Shown in pieces: positions 3,301 through 36,846 of a stretch of 64,000 bases of DNA. Under the pieces are notes generated by a model that worked only from the letters and a program-made list of their open reading frames with translations, made no database searches and was not told where the DNA came from. The stretch lies in IMG/VR virus record IMGVR_UViG_3300045988_124082; one strand, written 5' to 3'. The stretch's first letter is position 1. Each line of letters opens with the position of its first letter. The stretch is from a virus. The position numbers and the translations under genes were made by a program.

Positions 3301-3544
3301 AACTTGTGGTATAGAATTACCAGCTATACAAATATCAGCAAAACTGCGATTTAAAAATAGTTTTAAGTAGCCCCATAAACACTTGTAAAAGTCCGTAAAT
3401 AACTATTTACTTGCGTTTTTGATCAGAAATAGATAGTCAAAAAAGCACGTATTTATGCGGGTTTGAGACCGTTTGAAAAGATTTTTAAAAATAATTTTTT
3501 TAGGGTATTGCAATATTTTCGTGGGCGTGGTCTTATACAGTTGT

Positions 3545-4440
3545 TCAAACGAACAGGGAACTTGATAAAGCAACAACCGGCAAGGGTTGTAAAACGTGCT
3601 TGCCAATGATTCAACATAAAAAGGGGGTAGCCCTACCCCTGTATAAAAATCGGGCGTGTACCTTGATAATTTCATAGCCTAAGGACTCTCGTTTTTCGGG
3701 AAGTCCGTTACTGTTCGACAAGTCTCCGAACAGGTTCAAAAAATCAGTTTCTTTGGAAACTGAACGACAGGCTAAAACTCTGCCCTGTTACTCATTCGTG
3801 ACAGGCAGACAAGTAAACCTTTGACTTATTGCCTGTACCCAACGTCACACGAACGTGGTACAGGATTTATAAGAAGTCGTTGCAAGTCCAAAGAAGTGTA
3901 GCAGATTTTTTGAATCGGTTCGCAAAAATACAGGTAGTGACAGCCTGTAGACAAACTACCGAACGGTTGAAAGGTTTCCTAAGCGATATATTTTATATTG
4001 CTTAGTATAGTCGATATGACAGGGTGTCAAACATTGACGGTTGACCCGAAACACGTCCATATACTATAAGTCCCTGTGGGGGTGGGGTCCTGTCTTTCAA
4101 GTGTTTGAAAAGCGTTGTTGTTGACACTATAACAGAGTACCGCCCACGGTAGAAAGTTCTAACAGGCACGACAACGGCTCTCATTCGAGCTGGGTATATT
4201 GTGCATTGAATACTACTACTTATCTAGTTCAACGGTAGGAGACTAGACTCTGTGAAATAATAGGCTATGACAGGTGCAACCCCTGTATAGTATCGAGTGA
4301 GTGCATGAACACTTGCGAGCGGTCAAAAGTCCCTTTAGGGATAATATTAGAACTCTGTGAGTTCATTAGAATACATCTAACAGGTGTGGTCTAATGAGTT
4401 CATAGGAACTCAATGCAACAAATACATATTTTTTAGGGTA
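3545..4440 (+). ncRNA. Candidate large structured ncRNA (class unknown); boundaries approximate
   Basis: About 0.9 kb with no credible ORF and visibly higher GC than its flanks. Dense local hairpins at 3711-3733, 3745-3762, 3780-3808, 3832-3864, 3930-3948 and 3979-4005. G-U-compatible mismatches favour the plus strand. A possible TTGCAA -35 lies at 3507. Confidence 0.4.
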
Positions 4441-4467
4441 CGACTGTATCCGGAATAGGAGTTTATC

Positions 4468-7564: not shown

Positions 7565-7634
7565 TCAATACATAGAGGGGTAGTGATTTGATATATATCT
7601 AGTACAAATTATATATATTTGTAGCTAGAAAATC

Positions 7635-7675
7635 AGCCTTAGATAGCCAGTAAAGGAAATCTAAGGCTTTTTTTG
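7635..7675 (+). terminator. Rho-independent terminator
   Basis: AGCCTTAGAT...ATCTAAGGCT followed by T7. Confidence 0.8.
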
Positions 7676-7726
7676 TATCTATAAATATATTAATTCTTGT
7701 GGATGCACAAGAGAAAGGAAGAGCCT

Positions 7727-7999
7727 ATGGGATTAACAAAAAAAGAAATCTGTGAACGCTCAGAAACCATTGCATATTACAGTGGTTTATGTGGCGTAGA
7801 AGTGAAACAAATTACTTATGGAATTGAAGACTACATGTACTGTGAGTCTGGAGCTTGGGGTGGTGGTAAGAGCTATCACAAACTGAAAATCCAGACAGAC
7901 ATCAAAGGAAATATGTTCGTTAAATTACACGGGTATAGACTATTCTTAGATGAATTCATTCGTACAGGAAAGGAACAGACAAAGCTATGGGAACAATAA
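7727..7999 (+). CDS. Hypothetical protein
   Basis: Internal ATG behind GAGAAAGGAAGAG is preferred over the TTG/ATG at 7697. Confidence 0.6.
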   Translation: MGLTKKEICERSETIAYYSGLCGVEVKQITYGIEDYMYCESGAWGGGKSYHKLKIQTDIKGNMFVKLHGYRLFLDEFIRTGKEQTKLWEQ

Positions 8000-8274
8000 C
8001 ATCTTTAACATTGTTTGAACAACAATGTATGGAACAAAAGATATTCAAACTGAAAACACTAAAAGATTTTGGTCATGCAACTTACAAAGGATTTACACTT
8101 CGCAATGGTTATAGATACGGAATCACAGAGGAAGACGGAATCCATGTTGCGACTTCAAACTGGCAGCAAGGGAATTTCATTTACATGTACTTCTACAATG
8201 AATTAACAAACCAGTGGGAAGGATTGTGGATTGACTTAGAAGACGTAGAAATTGTGGAAGAGAAAGGAAATTAA
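7987..8274 (+). CDS. Hypothetical protein
   Basis: ORF overlapping the previous stop. Confidence 0.6.
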   Translation: MGTITSLTLFEQQCMEQKIFKLKTLKDFGHATYKGFTLRNGYRYGITEEDGIHVATSNWQQGNFIYMYFYNELTNQWEGLWIDLEDVEIVEEKGN

Positions 8275-8275
8275 G

Positions 8276-8728
8276 ATGGAAATTATAATTATTGCAAGTG
8301 CACTTTTTGGGATTATGACCGGATGGGTGTTAGGATACTCAATTAAAGAAGCTGAGGTAAAAGATACAAAGAACTTAGTCGATAATCTGAACAAGTTAAC
8401 CAGCAAAATAACCGAAGTCGAAAAGGAACTGGCAGAAACCAAAAAGGAAAGAGATTACGAAAAAAGCATGAACATTCATTGGTTCAATGAATATGAAAGA
8501 ATACGAGAAAAACATTATAGAGAAATGTCAAAACTCCGCCAGCAAACGGACTTTTTCGCAGCTGATGGAATAGACAAGTTTGTGGAAATGCGAAAACTAA
8601 AAAGCAAATGTTCAGAAGCTGTCAAGTATGCTATGAAAATGTCTCATCCAGACAACAATGGAAACGCCGAAGACTTTATGAAGTTCAGAAAGCTTTATAA
8701 AGAAATAACAGAGCAGAAAGGAAATTAA
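8276..8728 (+). CDS. Membrane-anchored coiled-coil protein with a C-terminal J-domain-like HPD segment
   Basis: N-terminal TM helix MEIIIIASALFGIMTGWVLGY. C-terminus AVKYAMKMSHPDNNGNAEDFMKFRKLYKEI. Paralog of 36283..36645. Confidence 0.6.
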   Translation: MEIIIIASALFGIMTGWVLGYSIKEAEVKDTKNLVDNLNKLTSKITEVEKELAETKKERDYEKSMNIHWFNEYERIREKHYREMSKLRQQTDFFAADGIDKFVEMRKLKSKCSEAVKYAMKMSHPDNNGNAEDFMKFRKLYKEITEQKGN

Positions 8729-8729
8729 G

Positions 8730-9026
8730 ATGTGGGAAATTGGAGATAGAGTGGTTGTTACTAAAGCCCCAGGTAGAACAATTGTAGCTAAGCTAGGCTA
8801 CAAGGGAACAGTTATTGATGTAGTAGATACAAGCGTACTTGTTGAATTTGATAAATACATTGGTGGACATAGTGGAAGTTGGAGTTCTCGTAACGGAAAG
8901 TTCGGACATTGTTATTGGCTACATCAGCTTGACGATGCAGACACAATTGGGGCTTATGTAGACTTTGCTTTAAGAGAAGAAGACTGTGTGTGTAAGAAAC
9001 TTAAAAAGAAAAACAACTTCTACTAA
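8730..9026 (+). CDS. NNYY-tail small protein (family I, MWEIGDRV small beta-barrel-like); tail KKKNNFY
   Basis: ORF plus RBS. The GDRVVV...GTV...VEFD...GGH...GHCYW pattern is shared with 7 paralogs. Confidence 0.75.
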   Translation: MWEIGDRVVVTKAPGRTIVAKLGYKGTVIDVVDTSVLVEFDKYIGGHSGSWSSRNGKFGHCYWLHQLDDADTIGAYVDFALREEDCVCKKLKKKNNFY

Positions 9027-9044
9027 AAGAAAGGCAGGGCAAAC

Positions 9045-9344
9045 ATGAGAGAACTTAAACTTGAAGATTGTAAAGTTGGGATGACTCTTAAGCTAAAGGA
9101 AGATTGTCCTTTTAGAAAGTATTGGGAAATAGATCCTAAGGAACCGGTAAAGTGCATTGTCCTAGAGGTGACCGAGAGTCAAATAGATAGCATTTTTGTA
9201 GATATCTACTATAAAAATGGGCGAAAATGTGTCCCGAGGAATTGGTATTTCTATACAGAAGATTCAATAATAGAGGCTAACGGTTATGAACTAATCTCAA
9301 AGAACTTAGAGTATCCGAACAAGCGAAAGAACAATTATTACTAA
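9045..9344 (+). CDS. NNYY-tail small protein (family II, LEDCKVG); tail KRKNNYY
   Basis: ORF plus RBS; N-terminal xEDCxVG motif. Confidence 0.75.
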   Translation: MRELKLEDCKVGMTLKLKEDCPFRKYWEIDPKEPVKCIVLEVTESQIDSIFVDIYYKNGRKCVPRNWYFYTEDSIIEANGYELISKNLEYPNKRKNNYY

Positions 9345-19595: not shown

Positions 19596-19607
19596 AGGAG
19601 GATGATT

Positions 19608-20285
19608 ATGAATACAAGTAAAGTTTTAGAATTTTTTGATGCACAGACATTAGTTAAAAAACCAGTTCATGTAATTGGATGTGGAGCAATTGGCTCAAAT
19701 GTCGCAGAACAGCTTACAAGATTAGGAGTCTCAGTGATTCATCTCTGGGATTACGATCATGTTGAGCCTAAAAATGTAACTAATCAGATGTTCTTTGATG
19801 GGGATATCGGAAAAGCTAAGGTAGATGCAATTGAAAATTTGTGTAAGTCAATTAATCCACAGATTAAAATAATCAAACATGAAAGAGGGATTGATGATCC
19901 ATATATTCTTACAGGATATGTATTCTTATGTGTAGATAATATTGAGCTTAGAAAGAAAATCGTAGAGGCCAATAAGTTAAATCCAAACTGTATTGCGTTC
20001 TTTGATTTTAGAATGAGACTTACAGATGCACAGCATTATTTTGCTGATTGTTCAGTTAAAGAACAGGTTGAAAACTTAATTGGAACCATGAATTTTACCC
20101 ATGAAGAAGCGGCTGCAGCAACTCCTACAAGTGCTTGTGGAGTGGAATTAAGTGTATGCTATACAGTTAAGAATATTGTTTGTTATGGAATTGCAAATTT
20201 TGTTAACTTTTGCCTAGGGAATGAACCAAAACAGATGATTATTACAGATATGAAGACAATGGATGTGACAGTATTCCCTATGTAA
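19608..20285 (+). CDS. ThiF/MoeB/E1-like adenylyltransferase
   Basis: VHVIGCGAIGSNVAEQLTRLGV..IHLWDYDHVEPKNVTNQ: a Rossmann GxGxxG followed by the D-x-D-x-V-E-x-x-N motif. ATG 19608 is preferred over 19602 on RBS spacing. Confidence 0.8.
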   Translation: MNTSKVLEFFDAQTLVKKPVHVIGCGAIGSNVAEQLTRLGVSVIHLWDYDHVEPKNVTNQMFFDGDIGKAKVDAIENLCKSINPQIKIIKHERGIDDPYILTGYVFLCVDNIELRKKIVEANKLNPNCIAFFDFRMRLTDAQHYFADCSVKEQVENLIGTMNFTHEEAAAATPTSACGVELSVCYTVKNIVCYGIANFVNFCLGNEPKQMIITDMKTMDVTVFPM

Positions 20286-22332: not shown

Positions 22333-22623
22333 ATGTATTTAGAAGACATTAAAGTTGGTCAGAAAGTGAACTATCGAGGTCATTCCTACATAATAACTAA
22401 AAATGTTGTAAAGTATCGGGGAATAATTAGACCTTATTATTCTACATATTCGTATATCAAGGAAAGTACAAATTGTCATAGATCACGAATGTATTTTCGA
22501 AGAGTAGAAAATAAAAATGAACCGATTGATGGATTTTGGTTATTATATGACGAGATTGAAGAAAAAATGGATCGAGGGCTTATTAAATTTTTGAACATGT
22601 CAAAGAAAAATAATTATTATTAA
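22333..22623 (+). CDS. NNYY-tail small protein (family IV); tail SKKNNYY
   Basis: ATG 5 nt after GAGGTG. Confidence 0.75.
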   Translation: MYLEDIKVGQKVNYRGHSYIITKNVVKYRGIIRPYYSTYSYIKESTNCHRSRMYFRRVENKNEPIDGFWLLYDEIEEKMDRGLIKFLNMSKKNNYY

Positions 22624-22638
22624 AGGGGGTGCCACAAA

Positions 22639-23940
22639 GTGAATGGAATCAATAAAAGGAAATTAGAACTGTTTATGGATGATCAGCTATGGAGACAAAA
22701 TATTACACATCAGCAAAGCAAAGGTGTACATAGAGATGTATTAAGAATTGTGTGTGATCCAGAATACAAAGCACGGCTTTTAGGAATGATCTGGGATGGT
22801 AATTACAAAATTGCACCTCCGTATGTAGTAGAAATTCCTAAAGACAATGGAAAAGTAAGAGAAGTGTATGTTAATCAGCCAATTGACAGATTTGTTATGA
22901 CACAAATCAATTATGTTTATATGCAATTATATGGTCATATGATTCATCCAAGATGTGTGTCTTATCAGAAAGGAATTGGAGTTAAAAATATCGTAGATGA
23001 TATTTGTATGGAGCTTAAGAAACATCAAGGAGCTGTCGGGTATAAGGTAGACATTAGTAAGTATTTTGACAGTGTAAGCCGTGAGGTCCTTAATGAAATG
23101 ATTGATAAAATTGATACAGGAAGTCCTATTGATCAGATCGTAAGAGATTATTATATGGATGATTGTATCATTGATCAGAAAGGAAATGTTATTGAGAAAT
23201 ACAAAAGTATGACTCAGGGTTGTGCAGTGTCTACATTCTTTGCCAATTGTGTTTTAAAAGATGTTGATGAAGAGTTAAGCAAGATGGATATTATTTATTA
23301 CAGATATTCAGATGATATCTTGATGGTTGGTAAGGATGCAGATAAGGCTTTGAAGATGTTGGGAGAAATGTTAGAAACGAAAGGACTTACATTAAATCCT
23401 AAAAAGGTAGAAACAGTCAGTACAGATCAATGGTTTACATTCTTAGGAGTGCGAATTAATGGACAGAAAAGAAGTTTTTCTGAGAAGAGCTTAAAGGAAT
23501 TTCAGAAACATATTAGAGAATATGTAAATAAGAAAGCAGGAATTGGTAGCGTAAAAGTTGCAATCAGACAAATTAATAAATATCTGTATTTGAATTTCTT
23601 AAGGAATCCTAATGAGTTTGGTTGGGCTGAGTATTTCTTTAGTATTGTGAATGTCGAAGATGATATTAAGACATTAGATATGTGGATTAAAGATACACTC
23701 AGAGGTTTGTATACTGGTAAGAGAGGAAAAGAACAGATAGGTGGACTAGGTGTAAATAAAGTAACTAATGAATGTGGAGTATTAAGAGGGAAGGGCAACA
23801 AAGTAAGTTCAAATTTACGTAAAACAAGAAGTGATAAAGACATTTTAGAAGAAGCAGGATATATCAGTATGAATGAAATGTATCATCAGTTTAGATATAG
23901 CAAAGAATTGTACAGGGCTTCATTGACGGCTTTATCTTAA
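22639..23940 (+). CDS. Reverse transcriptase (free-standing, group-II-intron-like RT with a thumb/X-like C-terminus)
   Basis: RT motifs in order: IPKDNGKVREV (1), DRFVMTQI (2), YKVDISKYFDSV (3), TQGCAVSTFFANCVL (4), YYRYSDDILMVG (5, YxDD), KGLTLNPKKVE (6), FTFLGVRI (7). GTG start behind AAAGGGGGTG, 15 nt after the last NNYY gene. Confidence 0.85.
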   Translation: MNGINKRKLELFMDDQLWRQNITHQQSKGVHRDVLRIVCDPEYKARLLGMIWDGNYKIAPPYVVEIPKDNGKVREVYVNQPIDRFVMTQINYVYMQLYGHMIHPRCVSYQKGIGVKNIVDDICMELKKHQGAVGYKVDISKYFDSVSREVLNEMIDKIDTGSPIDQIVRDYYMDDCIIDQKGNVIEKYKSMTQGCAVSTFFANCVLKDVDEELSKMDIIYYRYSDDILMVGKDADKALKMLGEMLETKGLTLNPKKVETVSTDQWFTFLGVRINGQKRSFSEKSLKEFQKHIREYVNKKAGIGSVKVAIRQINKYLYLNFLRNPNEFGWAEYFFSIVNVEDDIKTLDMWIKDTLRGLYTGKRGKEQIGGLGVNKVTNECGVLRGKGNKVSSNLRKTRSDKDILEEAGYISMNEMYHQFRYSKELYRASLTALS

Positions 23941-23987
23941 GTGTAACCTAACACGAGGTACTTATGTGAAATGTTATAAGTCAAATC

Positions 23988-24075
23988 AGATCCCTAGGAT
24001 ACACGGGTGATTCCATGCATGGTTGATAACCAGCATTCCATCAACCCGTTCCTCCCTGGATCTTATCATCATAAA
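23988..24075 (+). repeat. Hairpin-box unit 1: imperfect ~76-nt hairpin plus ATCATAAA box (24068-24075)
   Basis: AGATCC..AGGA..ACGGGT...ACCCGT.TCCT..GGATCT, then TATC-ATCATAAA. Confidence 0.55.
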
Positions 24076-24160
24076 GGAAATTTAGAAACGTGTTATTAAC
24101 ATGAACATAAGAAAGTTACTATGGACGTTGTATGTGAGACAATGGAATTACATATAAGGC

Positions 24161-24235
24161 GCGTTGAAGCTGCAGGATGACTGGCAATACATTGACCAAG
24201 TCATCCCTGCAGCTCAACCGCTTTATAATCATAAA
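24161..24235 (+). repeat. Hairpin-box unit 2: ~61-nt hairpin plus ATCATAAA box (24228-24235)
   Basis: GCGgTTGAAGCTGCAGGATGACT-loop-AGTCATCCcTGCAGCTCAAcCGC with bulges, then TTTATA-ATCATAAA. Confidence 0.6.
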
Positions 24236-24318
24236 AGAATAAAGGAACATAGCATGATTGTGAGCATACAAACAAGCTAACATGGGCTAAACATACGAGA
24301 CGTTGAATCATACATAAT

Positions 24319-24422
24319 AAGGGCACAGCTGCCTTATGCAGCGGGAAATTAGTCTCCTCGACAATAATTTCACCGCTGCCACAGGCGTGCGTGCCCTTAT
24401 TAATCATAAACCAATAGAGAAA
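24319..24422 (+). repeat. Hairpin-box unit 3: ~80-nt three-segment hairpin plus a 20-nt box ATCATAAACCAATAGAGAAA
   Basis: AAGGGCAC/GTGCCCTT, GCAGCGG/CCGCTGC and GAAATTA/TAATTTC stems. The box at 24403-24422 is identical to 26662-26681. Confidence 0.6.
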
Positions 24423-24459
24423 ACATGTCGCCAATGTAGAGTATGTAGAAAGGAAAATC

Positions 24460-24996
24460 ATGAAAAGTTTATTTAAAGTATTGTATGAGCTGTCACAAGG
24501 AAACACCTTAATGATTAATAGTTGCATGTCTTTTAGAATGACAACTGATCTATACAAAAGACAAGTGAGATTTAAGAAGTATAAGGTTGTTGATCAAGGA
24601 AGCGTAGTAAGTGATGTGACATTGTGTAGTGGAGAGGTTATTGAGTATGATGACTTAATAAAGGAAGGAGATTTAGATTTTATATTACCAATTGAATTAA
24701 ACGAAAAAGAAAATCCATATGAGGTTATTGAATACCTGTATGGATTATTTTATTGTTCAGTTCCTGATAGATCTGCTGTTCAAAAGAAACAGAATTTTAT
24801 AGCAAAAGGATTAAATGATTTTGGGGCAAATGATTTTACAGGAATGAGAAGAAGTGAAATTCAGCCATTGTTAGAACTCTATGTGTTACTCGCTGGAATG
24901 AAAGGATGGATCACTTGGAAAGATGATAAGTTGTTCTTTTGGAAAGGTGAGCATAAGAGTTTGTATATATATAGAAAATGGATTTTAGGTTATTAG
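24460..24996 (+). CDS. Hypothetical protein (178 aa)
   Basis: ORF with RBS GAAAGGAAAATC. First gene after hairpin cluster 1. Confidence 0.65.
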   Translation: MKSLFKVLYELSQGNTLMINSCMSFRMTTDLYKRQVRFKKYKVVDQGSVVSDVTLCSGEVIEYDDLIKEGDLDFILPIELNEKENPYEVIEYLYGLFYCSVPDRSAVQKKQNFIAKGLNDFGANDFTGMRRSEIQPLLELYVLLAGMKGWITWKDDKLFFWKGEHKSLYIYRKWILGY

Positions 24997-25013
24997 GAAA
25001 GGAAGAACGTAAA

Positions 25014-25775
25014 ATGAATGTAGAAAAGAGTTTGGAAAAAGCAGGAGTAGACACAAAGAAATATCCTTCATTAGCTATGCAGAATATTTTAGGATATCAA
25101 GGGAAAGCGTTTGCAGAAAATTCATACCTGTATAGAAAGATCATGGGAGATGGGCATGTGTTTAATCCTTATATACACAGAAGATGGCTTCCATATCAGT
25201 TTATGAATGCTGTCCATTGGACAAGACAGTATTATGCAGAGACTATTGGTTATGTAAAGATGCTTGAAAAAGAATTGATGCGTGGCAATAATGTAGATAA
25301 TTGGAAATATATGTACGATAAATTTGGAAAAGAGCTTAATGCTTTATATACACTCTCAAAAAGAGATAAAAAAGCGTATAAAGAAAGATGGGCTGCTTTT
25401 GGAAGATTAGAAATTTTGAAATATTTCTCTCAAGGGTTTGATTGTGTAGGGATAAATCAAAATACATTTTTGGAAATGAAAAATTTATTAGCGGATGAAA
25501 GATTTGAAGCTGAACGATATTGGCGATATCCTAATTGTTTATTGTATAAACGGCCACAATTTAGAAAAGATTTGGTAACAACAACTTTCCATTCAGGAAT
25601 TTATTTTACATTAAAACATATTATGATGTTTGATTATGAAAAATTACATATGTCTTCATCCCAAAAAGAAAGCCTAAAACGGATTAGAGAAGATTTAATT
25701 AACGGAGATTTCAATTATGAGCAGGCTTTTACAATTATTGAAGATTACGTAGCAAGATATTACAATCCAAGATAG
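25014..25775 (+). CDS. Hypothetical protein (253 aa)
   Basis: Internal ATG behind AGGAAAGGAAG is preferred over 24978, which overlaps the previous gene. Confidence 0.6.
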   Translation: MNVEKSLEKAGVDTKKYPSLAMQNILGYQGKAFAENSYLYRKIMGDGHVFNPYIHRRWLPYQFMNAVHWTRQYYAETIGYVKMLEKELMRGNNVDNWKYMYDKFGKELNALYTLSKRDKKAYKERWAAFGRLEILKYFSQGFDCVGINQNTFLEMKNLLADERFEAERYWRYPNCLLYKRPQFRKDLVTTTFHSGIYFTLKHIMMFDYEKLHMSSSQKESLKRIREDLINGDFNYEQAFTIIEDYVARYYNPR

Positions 25776-25788
25776 AGAGGGGAATTAT

Positions 25789-26286
25789 ATGCCAGAAGAA
25801 GTAAAAGAATTAACTATTAAAGAAGCAGATGAGTTTATTAAAAAGAAAGTAATCGGAGTTCTCATAAAAGCAGATGTAACAATCATAGTAAATGAATTAG
25901 AAGCTATTTATGGAGATTCGTTAGCAAATGGAACGGTTGGAGATTCGTTTTATATTTATAACTGTCCAGAAAATTATGATGAATCAGATTATGAAGAGCT
26001 TGAGTATATTGATTATGATGATATGTATGAAGATGATATTCGTGAAGAGAGAGCTGAAGCAGGAGATTTTAATCTTAAAGTATATAAGTGGTTCATTGTT
26101 GATCCAAGATTTACAGAATTATTAAAAGATTTGGGCGAGATAGTTGCTCCAGATATTAACCTTTGGGGATGTTGTGAAGACATTGAAGACGCAAGCGAAG
26201 CAACTGTAATTGAAGAATTTTTTGAAAGAATGCAGATTCTGTATGGACAAAAGAATGCAATTATTACAGAAAAGCTGAGTGCTTAA
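25789..26286 (+). CDS. Highly acidic hypothetical protein (possible DNA mimic; speculative)
   Basis: ORF plus RBS GAGAGGGGAA. Contains the stretch ENYDESDYEELEYIDYDDMYEDDIREERAEAGD. Confidence 0.65.
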   Translation: MPEEVKELTIKEADEFIKKKVIGVLIKADVTIIVNELEAIYGDSLANGTVGDSFYIYNCPENYDESDYEELEYIDYDDMYEDDIREERAEAGDFNLKVYKWFIVDPRFTELLKDLGEIVAPDINLWGCCEDIEDASEATVIEEFFERMQILYGQKNAIITEKLSA

Positions 26287-26290
26287 ACCA

Positions 26291-26332
26291 ACAAAAGGGA
26301 GATGTACCCTTTGTAGAAATACTTATCATAAA
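26291..26332 (+). repeat. Hairpin-box unit 4a: short hairpin plus ATCATAAA box (26325-26332)
   Basis: ACAAAAGGG-agatgta-CCCTTTGT, then agaaatactt-ATCATAAA. Confidence 0.5.
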
Positions 26333-26337
26333 CCATC

Positions 26338-26454
26338 GAAGAAGGAGGATCTTCAGAACCCTCCGCATTGATTACGTTAAACATCACTTCGTAATGATTT
26401 AACAGCATCAACTGCGAGAGGAGTTCATGAAGATCCTCCTTCTTGAATCATAAA
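26338..26454 (+). repeat. Hairpin-box unit 4b: ~108-nt hairpin plus ATCATAAA box (26447-26454)
   Basis: The 16-bp basal stem pairs GAAGAAGGAGGATCTT with AAGATCCTCCTTCTT. An inner stem pairs ATTACG with CGTAAT. Confidence 0.6.
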
Positions 26455-26550
26455 TACATAGAGGAATACATCAAAGATAAGTTGTTCTACATTTTTTGCA
26501 AGAGATATACTTGCTGATTTAATGAATTGTGTTTGAATCACTCACATAAT

Positions 26551-26681
26551 CGGGAGAAAGGAGGCATAATCTCATCTCCTCCACTGGCAAGCCAGGGAGG
26601 ACTTGATGAGATTACATTCCGCTGCGGCGTCATTGTGCCTCCATTCTCCTGATCATGTTTGATCATAAACCAATAGAGAAA
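26551..26681 (+). repeat. Hairpin-box unit 5: ~99-nt hairpin plus the 20-nt box ATCATAAACCAATAGAGAAA
   Basis: Stems GGGAGAA.GGAGGCA/TGCCTCC.TTCTCC, AATCTCATC/GATGAGATT and CCTCC/GGAGG. Box at 26662-26681. Confidence 0.6.
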
Positions 26682-26742
26682 TATATCACCTCACAATGAG
26701 TTAAATCTGTAACTATTAATTTACATAGAAAAGGAGAAACAG

Positions 26743-27312
26743 ATGAAAGCGATTTTTAAAGGAGAAAAAGTTGTAAGAACTAAATTAACATTAGACACTG
26801 GACTTGAAAGACTGGAAGGATCGGATGTTAGCTATTTTGTGAGACGACCTAAGCTGACACATGAAGTAAGTGAAGAAAAGGGTGGAATCATTTTAGAAAA
26901 GGATCTTTCTTTTAATAAAATCTTACTCTTAAAAGATGCTAATGAAGTGACAGTTGATGAATTTACATTTGTATTATCAGGCATTATTGATTACAACTTA
27001 GATGAAGAATGTGTAGTTTTTTACACAGACGCTTGTTGTTCAATTGAAGATACAGATGGGCAGAACAAAATCGAAGCCTATCATAAACTTTTGGATGCAT
27101 ATGAAAAGCAGGTAGGAACGAAAGAAAGTCAAGAGGAAGAATGCGATTGTGCTTACTGTAATGGAGATTACGTTTGTGCTTTTTGTAGAGATGATGATGA
27201 ATCAGAATTAGATGATGAAGAGGACATCGGAAAGAAAGCAATGGATAATCTAGAAGATCTAAATAAAATTCTTGCAGAGTTCTTCGGGGATATTCCGGGA
27301 TTCAAGTGTTAG
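26743..27312 (+). CDS. Hypothetical acidic Cys-rich protein
   Basis: RBS AAAAGGAGAAAC; CDCAYCNGDYVCAFC. Confidence 0.65.
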   Translation: MKAIFKGEKVVRTKLTLDTGLERLEGSDVSYFVRRPKLTHEVSEEKGGIILEKDLSFNKILLLKDANEVTVDEFTFVLSGIIDYNLDEECVVFYTDACCSIEDTDGQNKIEAYHKLLDAYEKQVGTKESQEEECDCAYCNGDYVCAFCRDDDESELDDEEDIGKKAMDNLEDLNKILAEFFGDIPGFKC

Positions 27313-27328
27313 TTAAAGATTGATATTG

Positions 27329-27359
27329 AGAGAGACACTTCGTATGAGGTGTCTCTTTT
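27329..27359 (+). terminator. Rho-independent terminator
   Basis: AGAGACACT-tcgtatga-GGTGTCTCT followed by T4. Confidence 0.7.
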
Positions 27360-27397
27360 AGTATATAGATTTTTTAGAAAGGAGATGAAAAAGGAAA

Positions 27398-28192
27398 ATG
27401 GCAACAGAGTTTGACAAACGAATGAAAGCTTATGAATGTGTCTCAAGACAGTACTTAACAAGAAGAGTACCAGTTGCAATTAGGGTAGATGGAAAGGCAT
27501 TTCATACATTCACTAGAGGGTTTCAGAAACCATTTGATGAAGTGCTTAGCAACACAATGCAAGCCACAATGATGAAAATGTGTAGACAGATTCAGGGTTG
27601 TGTGTTTGCTTACACACAGAGTGATGAAATTACATTTATTCTTATCGATTATCAGAAGCTAAATTCTGATGGCTGGTTTAACTACCGTACTGATAAGATG
27701 TGTAGCATTGCAGCGAGTATGGCTACTATGGAGTTCAATAAGGCTTTTAGTGCTTTTGTTTATGGATTTAAGGTAAACAAGGGAGAAGACATATCAAGCG
27801 AAGATATGGAAGTGCTTAAGGCCTATGAGAAATCTAAGGAACGTGGAGCTATGTTTGATGCTAGAGCGTTCTCAATTCCAAAAGAAGAAGTCACAAACTT
27901 AATCTATTGGAGACAACAGGATGCTATGAGAAATGCAGTTCAGATGGTTGGACAAGCATTTTATTCTCACAAAGAACTTCAGGGTGTTAATTGTGAAATG
28001 CTTAAAGAAATGTTACTGGCTGATAAGGGAATTGAATGGGATAAGATTCCTGTGAAATACCAGAGAGGCAGTTGTTGTGTCAAGGTTGATGGTGAATGGA
28101 CTATTGACAATAACATTTCTATCTTCAGAGGTAGTGACAGAGAGCAAATTGATAAGCTTGTGTTTGTTGAGAGTGAAGAGGATCAGGAGTGA
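27398..28192 (+). CDS. Thg1-like protein (tRNA-His guanylyltransferase family, 3'-5' nucleotidyltransferase)
   Basis: FDKRMKAYE...RRVPVAIRVDGKAFHTFTRGFQKPFDE...VFAYTQSDEITFIL matches the Thg1/TLP N-terminal catalytic core pattern. Confidence 0.75.
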   Translation: MATEFDKRMKAYECVSRQYLTRRVPVAIRVDGKAFHTFTRGFQKPFDEVLSNTMQATMMKMCRQIQGCVFAYTQSDEITFILIDYQKLNSDGWFNYRTDKMCSIAASMATMEFNKAFSAFVYGFKVNKGEDISSEDMEVLKAYEKSKERGAMFDARAFSIPKEEVTNLIYWRQQDAMRNAVQMVGQAFYSHKELQGVNCEMLKEMLLADKGIEWDKIPVKYQRGSCCVKVDGEWTIDNNISIFRGSDREQIDKLVFVESEEDQE

Positions 28193-30139: not shown

Positions 30140-30289
30140 GGGGACATAGCTTAATAGGTAAAGCAAAACTACATTCTTCCATAAAGAACTTAAAACTAAA
30201 ATTTTCATATTAAATATAAACATTTTGTACCTCCCTATTGTAATAAAATAACACTTATATTTATGTGGGTTCGAATCCCACTGTCCCCA
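30140..30289 (+). tRNA. tRNA-like gene with an aberrant ~95-nt AT-rich middle; anticodon not assignable
   Basis: 7-bp acceptor stem GGGGACA/TGTCCCC. D arm GCTT-AATAGGTA-AAGC (30149-30164). T arm GTGGG-TTCGAAT-CCCAC (30265-30281). Discriminator A, no encoded CCA. I could not fold a 5-bp anticodon stem in 30166-30259. Confidence 0.45.
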
Positions 30290-36645: not shown

Positions 36646-36712
36646 ATACATAAAGAAACTAATCGAGTATCAGATTTAGGATACAAGGCAGTATTAACCA
36701 CAAAGTAATTAG

Positions 36713-36766
36713 AAAACCGGCGATTGGAATCTACCACAGGAAACATTCCAATCGCCGGTTTTTTTC
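36713..36766 (+). terminator. Strong Rho-independent terminator
   Basis: 14-bp stem CCGGCGATTGGAAT/ATTCCAATCGCCGG followed by T7. Confidence 0.85.
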
Positions 36767-36846
36767 TAATTACTAAGATCATAAACAAAATAAAGGAAGA
36801 TACCACACTGATGAGTATTCTGTTTAAAAGAAAAGGAGATTACATA

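Follow-up and report, generated by a model that had tools for sequence, protein, structure and literature searches.

What kind of element occupies the hairpin-rich gap in the viral record IMGVR_UViG_3300045988_124082? We analyzed a 64-kb stretch of this record (the window; all coordinates are on its + strand), and in particular its positions 26287-26742, a region that is non-coding on the + strand and lies between two acidic open reading frames (ORFs), 25789-26286 and 26743-27312. A preliminary description, made from the letters alone, had read this region (cluster 2) as three hairpin-and-box units that, together with an earlier cluster 1 (23941-24459), bracket a three-gene cassette. It had also proposed promoter or processing activity for the boxes and Shine-Dalgarno (SD)/anti-SD character for the stems. 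We find that cluster 2 is a real RNA element belonging to a kind of system that has already been described, and the finding is not new in that sense. It is very probably the second, two-unit part of the non-coding RNA (ncRNA) template array of a phage UG27 reverse transcriptase (RT) system, and its boxes are best read as the start and stop motifs of the RT rather than as promoters or cassette boundaries.

The 456-nt region folds at -162 kcal/mol, as compared to -95 ± 6 kcal/mol in shuffled sequences (z = -10.6), and the fold of cluster 1 has a z-score of -7.7. The short box ATCATAAA is present in cluster 2 at 26325, 26447 and 26662, as first reported. Across the window it has 17 copies, counting both strands (8.9 ± 2.8 expected); the + strand carries 11 of them, 6 of which are located in the two intergenic clusters, which together cover ~975 nt. 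The longer 20-mer ATCATAAACCAATAGAGAAA is found exactly twice, at 24403-24422 and 26662-26681 (0.01 expected, 3 mismatches allowed), confirming the reported identity of the two boxes. The box ends 38 nt ahead of the start of ORF 24460 and 62 nt ahead of that of ORF 26743, and the boxes that precede the hairpin in the last unit of each cluster do resemble each other.

We count six units in the window, every one on the + strand: cluster 1 (array 1) has three, cluster 2 (array 2) has two, and the sixth is an orphan (Table 1). Their parts follow one order, in which a small 5′ hairpin is followed by the first strand of the basal stem and by a 5′ loop whose last bases are (A/U)AUCA; next come a long central hairpin, the sequence AUCAUAAA-N-UANAG, about 3 further bases, 5-7 bases that match the loop of the small hairpin, and the 3′ strand of the basal stem. 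The central hairpin, which is variable in sequence, is held in an asymmetric internal loop with (A/U)AUCA on its 5′ side and AUCAUAAA-N-UANAG on its 3′ side. The 3′ motif reads AUC-N9-UANAG at 24228, 24403, 26447 and 26662; AUC...UANAG is present in five of the six units, and the copy in unit 1 (24068) is imperfect (UAGAA, or UAAAG in another register). Four units have a spacing of N9; that of the orphan is N10, and unit 1 has N12, or N9 when read in another register. On the 5′ side, (A/U)AUCA appears in units 1, 3, 4 and 5, AUUACA in unit 2 and UUAACCA in the orphan. ATCATAAA is this clade's form of the AUC start motif.

Parsed by the same order of parts, cluster 2 is two units, not the three first counted. 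The hairpin noted first is the small 5′ hairpin of unit 4, which carries the pseudoknot loop, and the first ATCATAAA is the putative 5′ stop motif of that unit. This copy, at 26325, has no UANAG after it and sits in the 5′ strand of the basal stem and the 5′ loop; it becomes ATCATCAA in five of eight close relatives, so that AUCA alone is preserved there. The count of two also came from a profile search. MAFFT aligned only the 3′ block of 19 whole units, the variable hairpins having scrambled their 5′ halves, and we consequently used an nhmmer profile of the 3′ block in place of a covariance model. The profile was built from 13 units of relatives (loci L048, L050, L052 and L023) and contains no sequences of the window. 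In the window it picks out exactly six sites, each of them on the + strand (24062, 24219, 24393, 26438, 26657 and 36774), with E-values between 2e-4 and 1e-2, and the next match has E = 0.86. Two of these sites, 26438 and 26657, are in cluster 2.

Both the stems and the pseudoknot are backed by compensatory changes. Across eight close relatives that are 94-100% identical over cluster 2, 99.3% of the alignment cells of the proposed structure are standard pairs, and eight pairs have changed on both sides, as compared to 2.6 ± 1.1 in shuffles (0 of 500 reach eight) and at most 1 in slid controls. In one relative (L006), the entire lower stem of unit 5 is rewritten and its pairing is intact. The loop of the small hairpin is complementary to bases ~3 nt after UANAG in six of six units (5-7 bp). 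Loop and partner vary in step between units, and in close relatives their columns are invariant or compatible with GU pairing. Over 36 units from 10 loci, the complementarity within a unit averages 5.28 bp, as compared to 4.21 bp across units (permutation p = 5e-5). A scan for the motif plus a 5-bp pseudoknot was rejected as too permissive (~37 matches per shuffled strand). The pseudoknot and the strand-specific motifs suggest a function at the RNA level.

General-purpose searches had little to say about this region. An Rfam gathering scan of the whole window returned only a transfer RNA (tRNA)-like match, and the published UG27 models are not in Rfam 15; Rfam E-value scans of two other regions gave nothing relevant, ARAGORN called no tRNA or transfer-messenger RNA, and a blastn search of 22600-27400 against 50,697 phage records had no match. 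A reading of the raw sequence recovered a real RNA family that Rfam and blastn miss.

We now turn to the protein that would use these units. The RT gene stops one base ahead of cluster 1 and lies 2.3 kb upstream of cluster 2. The PADLOC model RT_UG27 matches it over its full length (residues 5-431, E = 1.3e-164, 546 bits), the runner-up model being RT_UG26 (9e-52), and Pfam RVT_1 matches it at 5.6e-21. Its YRYSDD motif is unchanged in 23 RT homologues. UG27 RTs reside in gut phages together with both of their partner genes, and a structured ncRNA was predicted between the RT and a partner gene (Mestre et al. 2022, PMC9226505). According to a recent preprint (bioRxiv 10.64898/2026.09.22.753630, 24 Sept 2026), UG27 loci bear variable arrays of ~150-nt units that are diverse in sequence and common in structure. 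Each unit has a central hairpin within an asymmetric internal loop, bounded by UUYA and AUC-N7-UANAG, plus an additional basal hairpin and a pseudoknot; its length is near 135, 149 or 167 nt and varies over the phylogeny. In some loci, neighbouring intergenic regions hold further units, and the published units number 82,314. When five systems were expressed in Escherichia coli, the RT, the small accessory protein (sORF) and the large accessory protein (bORF), all three of which are required, converted the central hairpin into free single-stranded DNA (ssDNA) of 50-100 nt, starting at AUC and stopping after UUYA. The preprint reports the role of these complementary DNAs (cDNAs) as unknown.

An RT beside a structured RNA with flanking inverted repeats, here the basal stems, could also indicate retron-like msr-msd elements that yield branched multicopy RNA-DNA; ssDNA hairpin products would be expected there too, and the retron models of Pfam and NCBIfam do match the RT, weakly. 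The scores separate the two families, however, the best retron model reaching 59 bits against the 546 bits of the UG27 model. There are several units per RT, they lie downstream of its gene and their conserved motifs differ from those of retrons, and the published products are free ssDNA for which the preprint describes no branched 2′-5′ linkage. We consider a retron-like element extremely unlikely.

The protein families, the anatomy of the units, their covariation and the family-wide conservation of their motifs are observed in these genomes. By analogy with the five UG27 systems of the preprint, we infer transcription, cDNA synthesis and the cDNA end points as follows. The system would consist of the RT, the three-unit array 1, the sORF, the bORF and array 2, with the units transcribed on the + strand along with the operon. 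A complex of RT, sORF and bORF would start DNA synthesis at AUC and copy the central hairpin, and synthesis would halt just past the 5′ motif. Cluster 2 would then give rise to two ssDNA hairpins of ~121 nt (26329-26449) and ~124 nt (26541-26664), and the other four units to products of 77-96 nt. Folded as DNA, the predicted cDNAs all form stable hairpins (z from -4.6 to -11.5).

Several observations weigh against assigning cluster 2 to such a template array. The AUC-UANAG spacing is at least 9 here, not the published 7; the 5′ motif is AUCA or UUAC-like and not UUYA, true UUCA or UUUA being found in loci L022, L030 and L036; and the units are 161-210 nt long, as compared to the published 135-167 nt, because their central hairpins are longer. 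The limits of the units, and the 5-bp pseudoknots of units 2 and 3, were in part drawn by eye; the candidate pseudoknot of unit 2, CUAUG/CAUAG, is the weakest of the six. A permissive pseudoknot detector, even with a central hairpin required, had ~3 chance matches per 64-kb strand, and was superseded by the permutation test and the leave-out profile search. Lastly, the cDNA mechanism comes from one non-peer-reviewed preprint and five other UG27 systems in E. coli.

Relatives at 63-84% RT identity have AUC-UANAG spacings from N8 to N11, L022 has N9, and loci at 34-38% RT identity have N7. The distant loci L030, L033 and L036 carry AUC-N7-UANAG at intervals of 170-290 nt, UUCA or UUUA motifs and the same pseudoknot offset. 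To judge from these distant loci, the N9 spacing and the AUCA motif of the window are therefore clade variants within one family and not the mark of a different element.

The layout of the locus is conserved among its relatives. Ten IMG/VR contigs of 70-134 kb share it at 92-99% identity. At 84%, 69% and 63% RT identity, the order RT, array, sORF, bORF, acidic ORF, array is kept, with unit numbers of 2 + 2, 2 + 1, and 1 + 1 plus one further downstream, respectively; the central hairpins are quite different there and the frames remain recognizable. The layout is conserved, with varying unit numbers, in L048, L050 and L052. The order RT, array, sORF, bORF holds down to ~42% RT identity, and the two acidic ORFs and the second array are restricted to the closest clade. 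Homologues of ORF 25789-26286, which has no match in Pfam, NCBIfam, PADLOC or PHROG, are confined to loci with at least 63% RT identity. The nearest genome-encoded RTs are 41-46% identical and come from metagenome-assembled genomes of Clostridia. In L059 (97% RT identity), a 1.6-kb insertion (7633-9244) directly follows the stop codon of the acidic ORF and ends where array 2 starts. A loss of cluster 2 in this locus was considered and rejected, the insertion having displaced the cluster beyond the part of the contig first compared.

These relatives also bear on the proposed cassette. Its description holds insofar as the two clusters are one element family and flank three genes (24460-26286). 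Bracketing is not the defining association, however, because cluster 1 follows immediately after the RT gene, and the obligatory partners of the RT make up two of the three genes between the clusters. Conserved flanks around variable hairpin cores, on both sides of three genes, and an insertion placed as precisely as that of L059 are what one might also expect if the units were recombination sites or mobile palindromes (like attC sites, or like miniature inverted-repeat transposable elements or repetitive extragenic palindromes) that delimit a mobile cassette. Yet the six copies share a single strand and are linked to the UG27 genes, neither an integrase nor a transposase is encoded nearby, and the bracketed genes stay with the RT, as its own partners, in all relatives. 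The pseudoknot and the strand-specific motifs point to the RNA level as well. Of all explanations considered, this one has the smallest probability, which we regard as close to negligible.

The position of the identical 20-mer, 38 and 62 nt ahead of ORF starts, had suggested a promoter. More broadly, the units might serve the expression of the operon, whether as processing sites of the RNase III type, as attenuators or terminators, or through a phage promoter contained in the conserved box ahead of 24460 and 26743. RNase III classically cuts long hairpins between the genes of phage operons, and in the window a T-run follows the basal stem of unit 4. The promoter claim is not supported, however, as the 23 promoter-like sites found are no more than expected (22.8), and the box forms part of none of those on the + strand. 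Neither cluster contains a called + strand terminator, and the T-run ranges from 2 to 9 T among close relatives. Unrelated phages share the box in the arrays beside their UG27 RTs, and there it marks where the cDNA begins; a cleavage site does not account for the conservation of the pseudoknot and the basal stem. Expression signals are therefore a very unlikely explanation of the units, though the array could be processed into single units alongside its use as template. The terminator-like site just after the second acidic gene is likely the end of the transcription unit. Since it is the sole + strand site of this kind in 22400-27500, and promoter-like sites are not enriched, both arrays are probably co-transcribed with the genes of the operon.

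The stems of the units do contain the GGAGG/CCUCC pairs reported at the outset, and we asked how far their reading as SD and anti-SD sequence can be taken. In 40 non-redundant structured intergenic regions of UG27 loci (L021-L104 and the window), compared to dinucleotide shuffles, CCTCC ranks second among over-represented 5-mers (35 observed, 11.0 expected, z = 7.8) and GGAGG ranks seventh (28 versus 12.1, ~2.3-fold). CCCTC, CTCCC and CCTCT, which have the same composition, are not enriched. Unstructured control gaps have no excess of CCTCC and show only the expected AGGAG of true ribosome-binding sites. In a hand-picked set of 36 units, CCTCC occurs 21 times (5.2 expected). GCTGC is enriched in the 40 regions as well (41 versus 13.8), and among 23 CCUCC copies with a motif downstream of them, ~10 are placed 6-24 nt ahead of AUC. 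The preprint makes no mention of a CCUCC enrichment.

The RNA stems, or the cDNAs copied from them, might thus act as SD/anti-SD mimics that bind the 30S subunit, mRNAs or a recognizing factor, and the ~3-fold excess, absent from control gaps, is the part of this proposal that stands. The rest is weak. The match to the 3′ end of 16S ribosomal RNA is not extended by conserved flanks, and the density of CCUCC is alike in high-SD loci (2.44 per kb) and low-SD loci (2.34 per kb). Five of eight close relatives have GAAGG/CCUUC in place of one GGAGG/CCUCC pair, which keeps the pairing and not the sequence. Only 18 of the 40 arrays carry the motif, the hairpins sequester both strands, and some GGAGG counts are genuine SDs of downstream genes. 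Mimicry of ribosomal signals is accordingly about as improbable as the expression signals above. Given the unconserved flanks, the SD-independent density and the GAAGG/CCUUC swap, we take the enrichment to be a genuine, though unexplained, trait of the family, for which stem design or recognition by the RT is a more likely cause than ribosomes.

A bolder proposal, which we hold to be unlikely, is that the central hairpins copied to DNA are under family-wide selection for CCUCC/GGAGG in SD-using and SD-poor hosts alike. If so, the hairpins, as RNA or as ssDNA, would have a target able to recognize CCUCC/GGAGG, be it the 16S 3′ end or the 30S subunit, mRNAs that bear an SD, or a nuclease or defence protein of the host, and the selection would be the first clue to the role of UG27 cDNAs. 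In either case, the ~3-fold excess is a testable lead on what the hairpins are selected for.

Table 1. Features of the UG27 locus and its ncRNA units in the window (pairs of intervals are the two strands of a stem or pseudoknot).
Feature	Position	Strand	Remarks
UG27-group reverse transcriptase	22639-23940	+	433 amino acids; Y-S-D-D active site, residues 223-226
ncRNA unit 1, array 1	23946-24113	+	leave-out profile match 24062-24094, E = 3e-4
Unit 1, small hairpin	23946-23959	+	loop AACACG
Unit 1, AAAUCA	23983-23988	+	
Unit 1, central hairpin	~23989-24064	+	
Unit 1, AUCAUAAA	24068	+	
Unit 1, pseudoknot strand	24089-24095	+	CGUGUU(A)
ncRNA unit 2, array 1	24113-24273	+	profile match 24219-24253, E = 2e-3
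Unit 2, central hairpin	~24153-24227	+	
Unit 2, AUCAUAAAAGAAUAAAG	24228	+	
ncRNA unit 3, array 1	24275-24446	+	profile match 24393-24430, E = 4e-4
Unit 3, small hairpin	24275-24288	+	AGCU-AACAUG-GGCU
Unit 3, 5′ motif UUGAAUCA	24303-24310	+	
Unit 3, central hairpin	24315-24402	+	
Unit 3, box AUCAUAAACCAAUAGAGAAA	24403-24422	+	
Unit 3, pseudoknot strand		+	CAUGU
UG27 small accessory protein (sORF, cluster 346)	24460-24996	+	PADLOC RTas346, E = 6.3e-14; synteny
UG27 large accessory protein (bORF, cluster 337)	24978-25775	+	PADLOC RTas337, E = 2.4e-10; synteny
Acidic ORF	25789-26286	+	165 amino acids; 42 D+E versus 15 K+R; clade-specific
ncRNA unit 4, array 2	26294-26490	+	leave-out profile match 26438-26473, E = 9.5e-3
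Unit 4, small 5′ hairpin	26294-26312	+	loop GAUGUA, 26301-26306
Unit 4, basal stem	26313-26327 with 26476-26490	+	
Unit 4, 5′ motif AUCA	26325-26328	+	
Unit 4, central hairpin	26336-26446	+	
Unit 4, 3′ motif AUCAUAAAUACAUAGAG	26447-26463	+	
Unit 4, pseudoknot	26301-26306 with 26467-26472	+	GAUGUA with UACAUC
ncRNA unit 5, array 2	26498-26707	+	leave-out profile match 26657-26688, E = 2e-4
Unit 5, small hairpin	26498-26514	+	
Unit 5, basal stem	26516-26531 with 26692-26707	+	
Unit 5, 5′ motif UUGAAUCA	26533-26540	+	
Unit 5, central hairpin	26544-26658	+	
Unit 5, 3′ motif AUCAUAAACCAAUAGAG	26662-26678	+	
Unit 5, pseudoknot	26504-26509 with 26682-26687	+	GAUAUA with UAUAUC
Second acidic ORF	26743-27312	+	189 amino acids; Cys-rich, CDCAYCNGDYVCAFC; clade-specific; last gene ahead of the terminator
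Intrinsic-terminator-like site	27323-27364	+	sole + strand one in 22400-27500
Orphan ncRNA unit 6	36661-36821	+	E = 3.8e-3 with profile not trained on the window; fold z = -8.2
Unit 6, small hairpin	36661-36676	+	
Unit 6, basal stem	36679-36685 with 36815-36821	+	
Unit 6, central hairpin	36704-36774	+	
Unit 6, 3′ motif AUCAUAAACAAAAUAAAG	36778-36795	+	
Unit 6, pseudoknot strand		+	GAUAC, 3 nt past the motif

Units can be dispersed through the phage genome, as the orphan unit illustrates. It lies ~12.7 kb downstream of the RT and 10 kb beyond cluster 2, just ahead of a gene for an ATPase (start 36847); it lacks none of the features of a unit and is preserved in three related contigs. Its central hairpin is terminator-like too, with a GC stem followed by U7 in the window and U4 in relatives. 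In one relative (L135:2728-2963), the apical 14 nt of this hairpin (36731-36744) are exactly inverted, from CTACCACAGGAAAC to GTTTCCTGTGGTAG, and the stem is unchanged, which looks like a flip between the hairpin arms.

Other features of the window deserve a brief record. The two acidic ORFs that flank array 2 have net charges of about -27 and -24, respectively, and are without family matches; both are limited to the clade of loci that have at least 63% RT identity, and the second has a cysteine cluster. A ThiF-family gene (19602-20285) upstream of the RT is syntenic in relatives. The tRNA-like gene at 30140-30289 (+ strand; Rfam tRNA, 43.7 bits) has intact acceptor, D and T arms and 93 AU-rich bases in place of the 15-nt anticodon arm; it is not called by ARAGORN, and it lies 2 kb from a Thg1-like gene (tRNA-His guanylyltransferase family, 27398-28192). 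Between the minus-strand ORF 1473-2687 and the plus-strand genes, 1.1 kb without long ORFs (3355-4467) folds per base as strongly as the UG27 arrays (-0.317 kcal/mol/nt) and includes a 196-nt hairpin (3727-3922); this region has no Rfam match and no UG27 box. Base composition is asymmetric between the strands of the window (A 36.9%, T 28.5%, G 21.6%, C 12.9%), and nearly all ORFs are on the + strand after ~4.4 kb.

How does this locus compare with known systems? UG27 is the one large group of UG/Abi RTs that lives in phages and not in bacterial defence islands. The window offers a well-resolved example from a gut phage lineage of ~115-135 kb whose nearest genome-encoded RT relatives are in Clostridia. 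With the published UG27 systems it shares the UG27 RT with YSDD, the sORF, the bORF and the phage context. It also shares the arrays of diverse units, in each of which an asymmetric internal loop places AUC...UANAG 3′ of the central hairpin and a short candidate stop motif of the U-C/Y-A type 5′ of it, and which have a basal hairpin and a pseudoknot too, as well as a variable unit number and extra units in neighbouring intergenic regions. It differs from them in its wider AUC-UANAG spacing (8-11 in close relatives), in a box extended to AUCAUAAA, in a 5′ motif that is mostly AUCA, in its longer units with predicted cDNAs of up to ~124 nt, and in having a second array after a clade-specific acidic ORF and one unit far from the RT. 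The variant spacing, the unusually long templates, the split array and the distant orphan together indicate that the frame of the unit varies while the pseudoknotted scaffold is kept.

Retrons resemble these systems in that their RT, of bacterial or phage origin, reverse-transcribes a portion of a neighbouring structured ncRNA with a closing basal stem, which yields a short ssDNA hairpin. Their RTs belong to another clade, however, with one ncRNA per RT, located upstream of the gene; priming is from the 2′-OH of a branching G, the product is RNA-linked multicopy single-stranded DNA, and retrons act in defence with effector proteins. In contrast, the units of the window are several, downstream and dispersed, carry other motifs, and are accompanied by two unrelated accessory proteins. 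DRT2 and DRT9 (UG2 and UG28) are closer in that they, too, pair a class 2 UG/Abi RT with a dedicated structured ncRNA template. According to the preprint, other class 2 UG RTs make long concatemeric cDNA from a single ncRNA, whereas UG27 systems make short discrete hairpins from many units, in phages and with no association with defence islands (PMC9226505).

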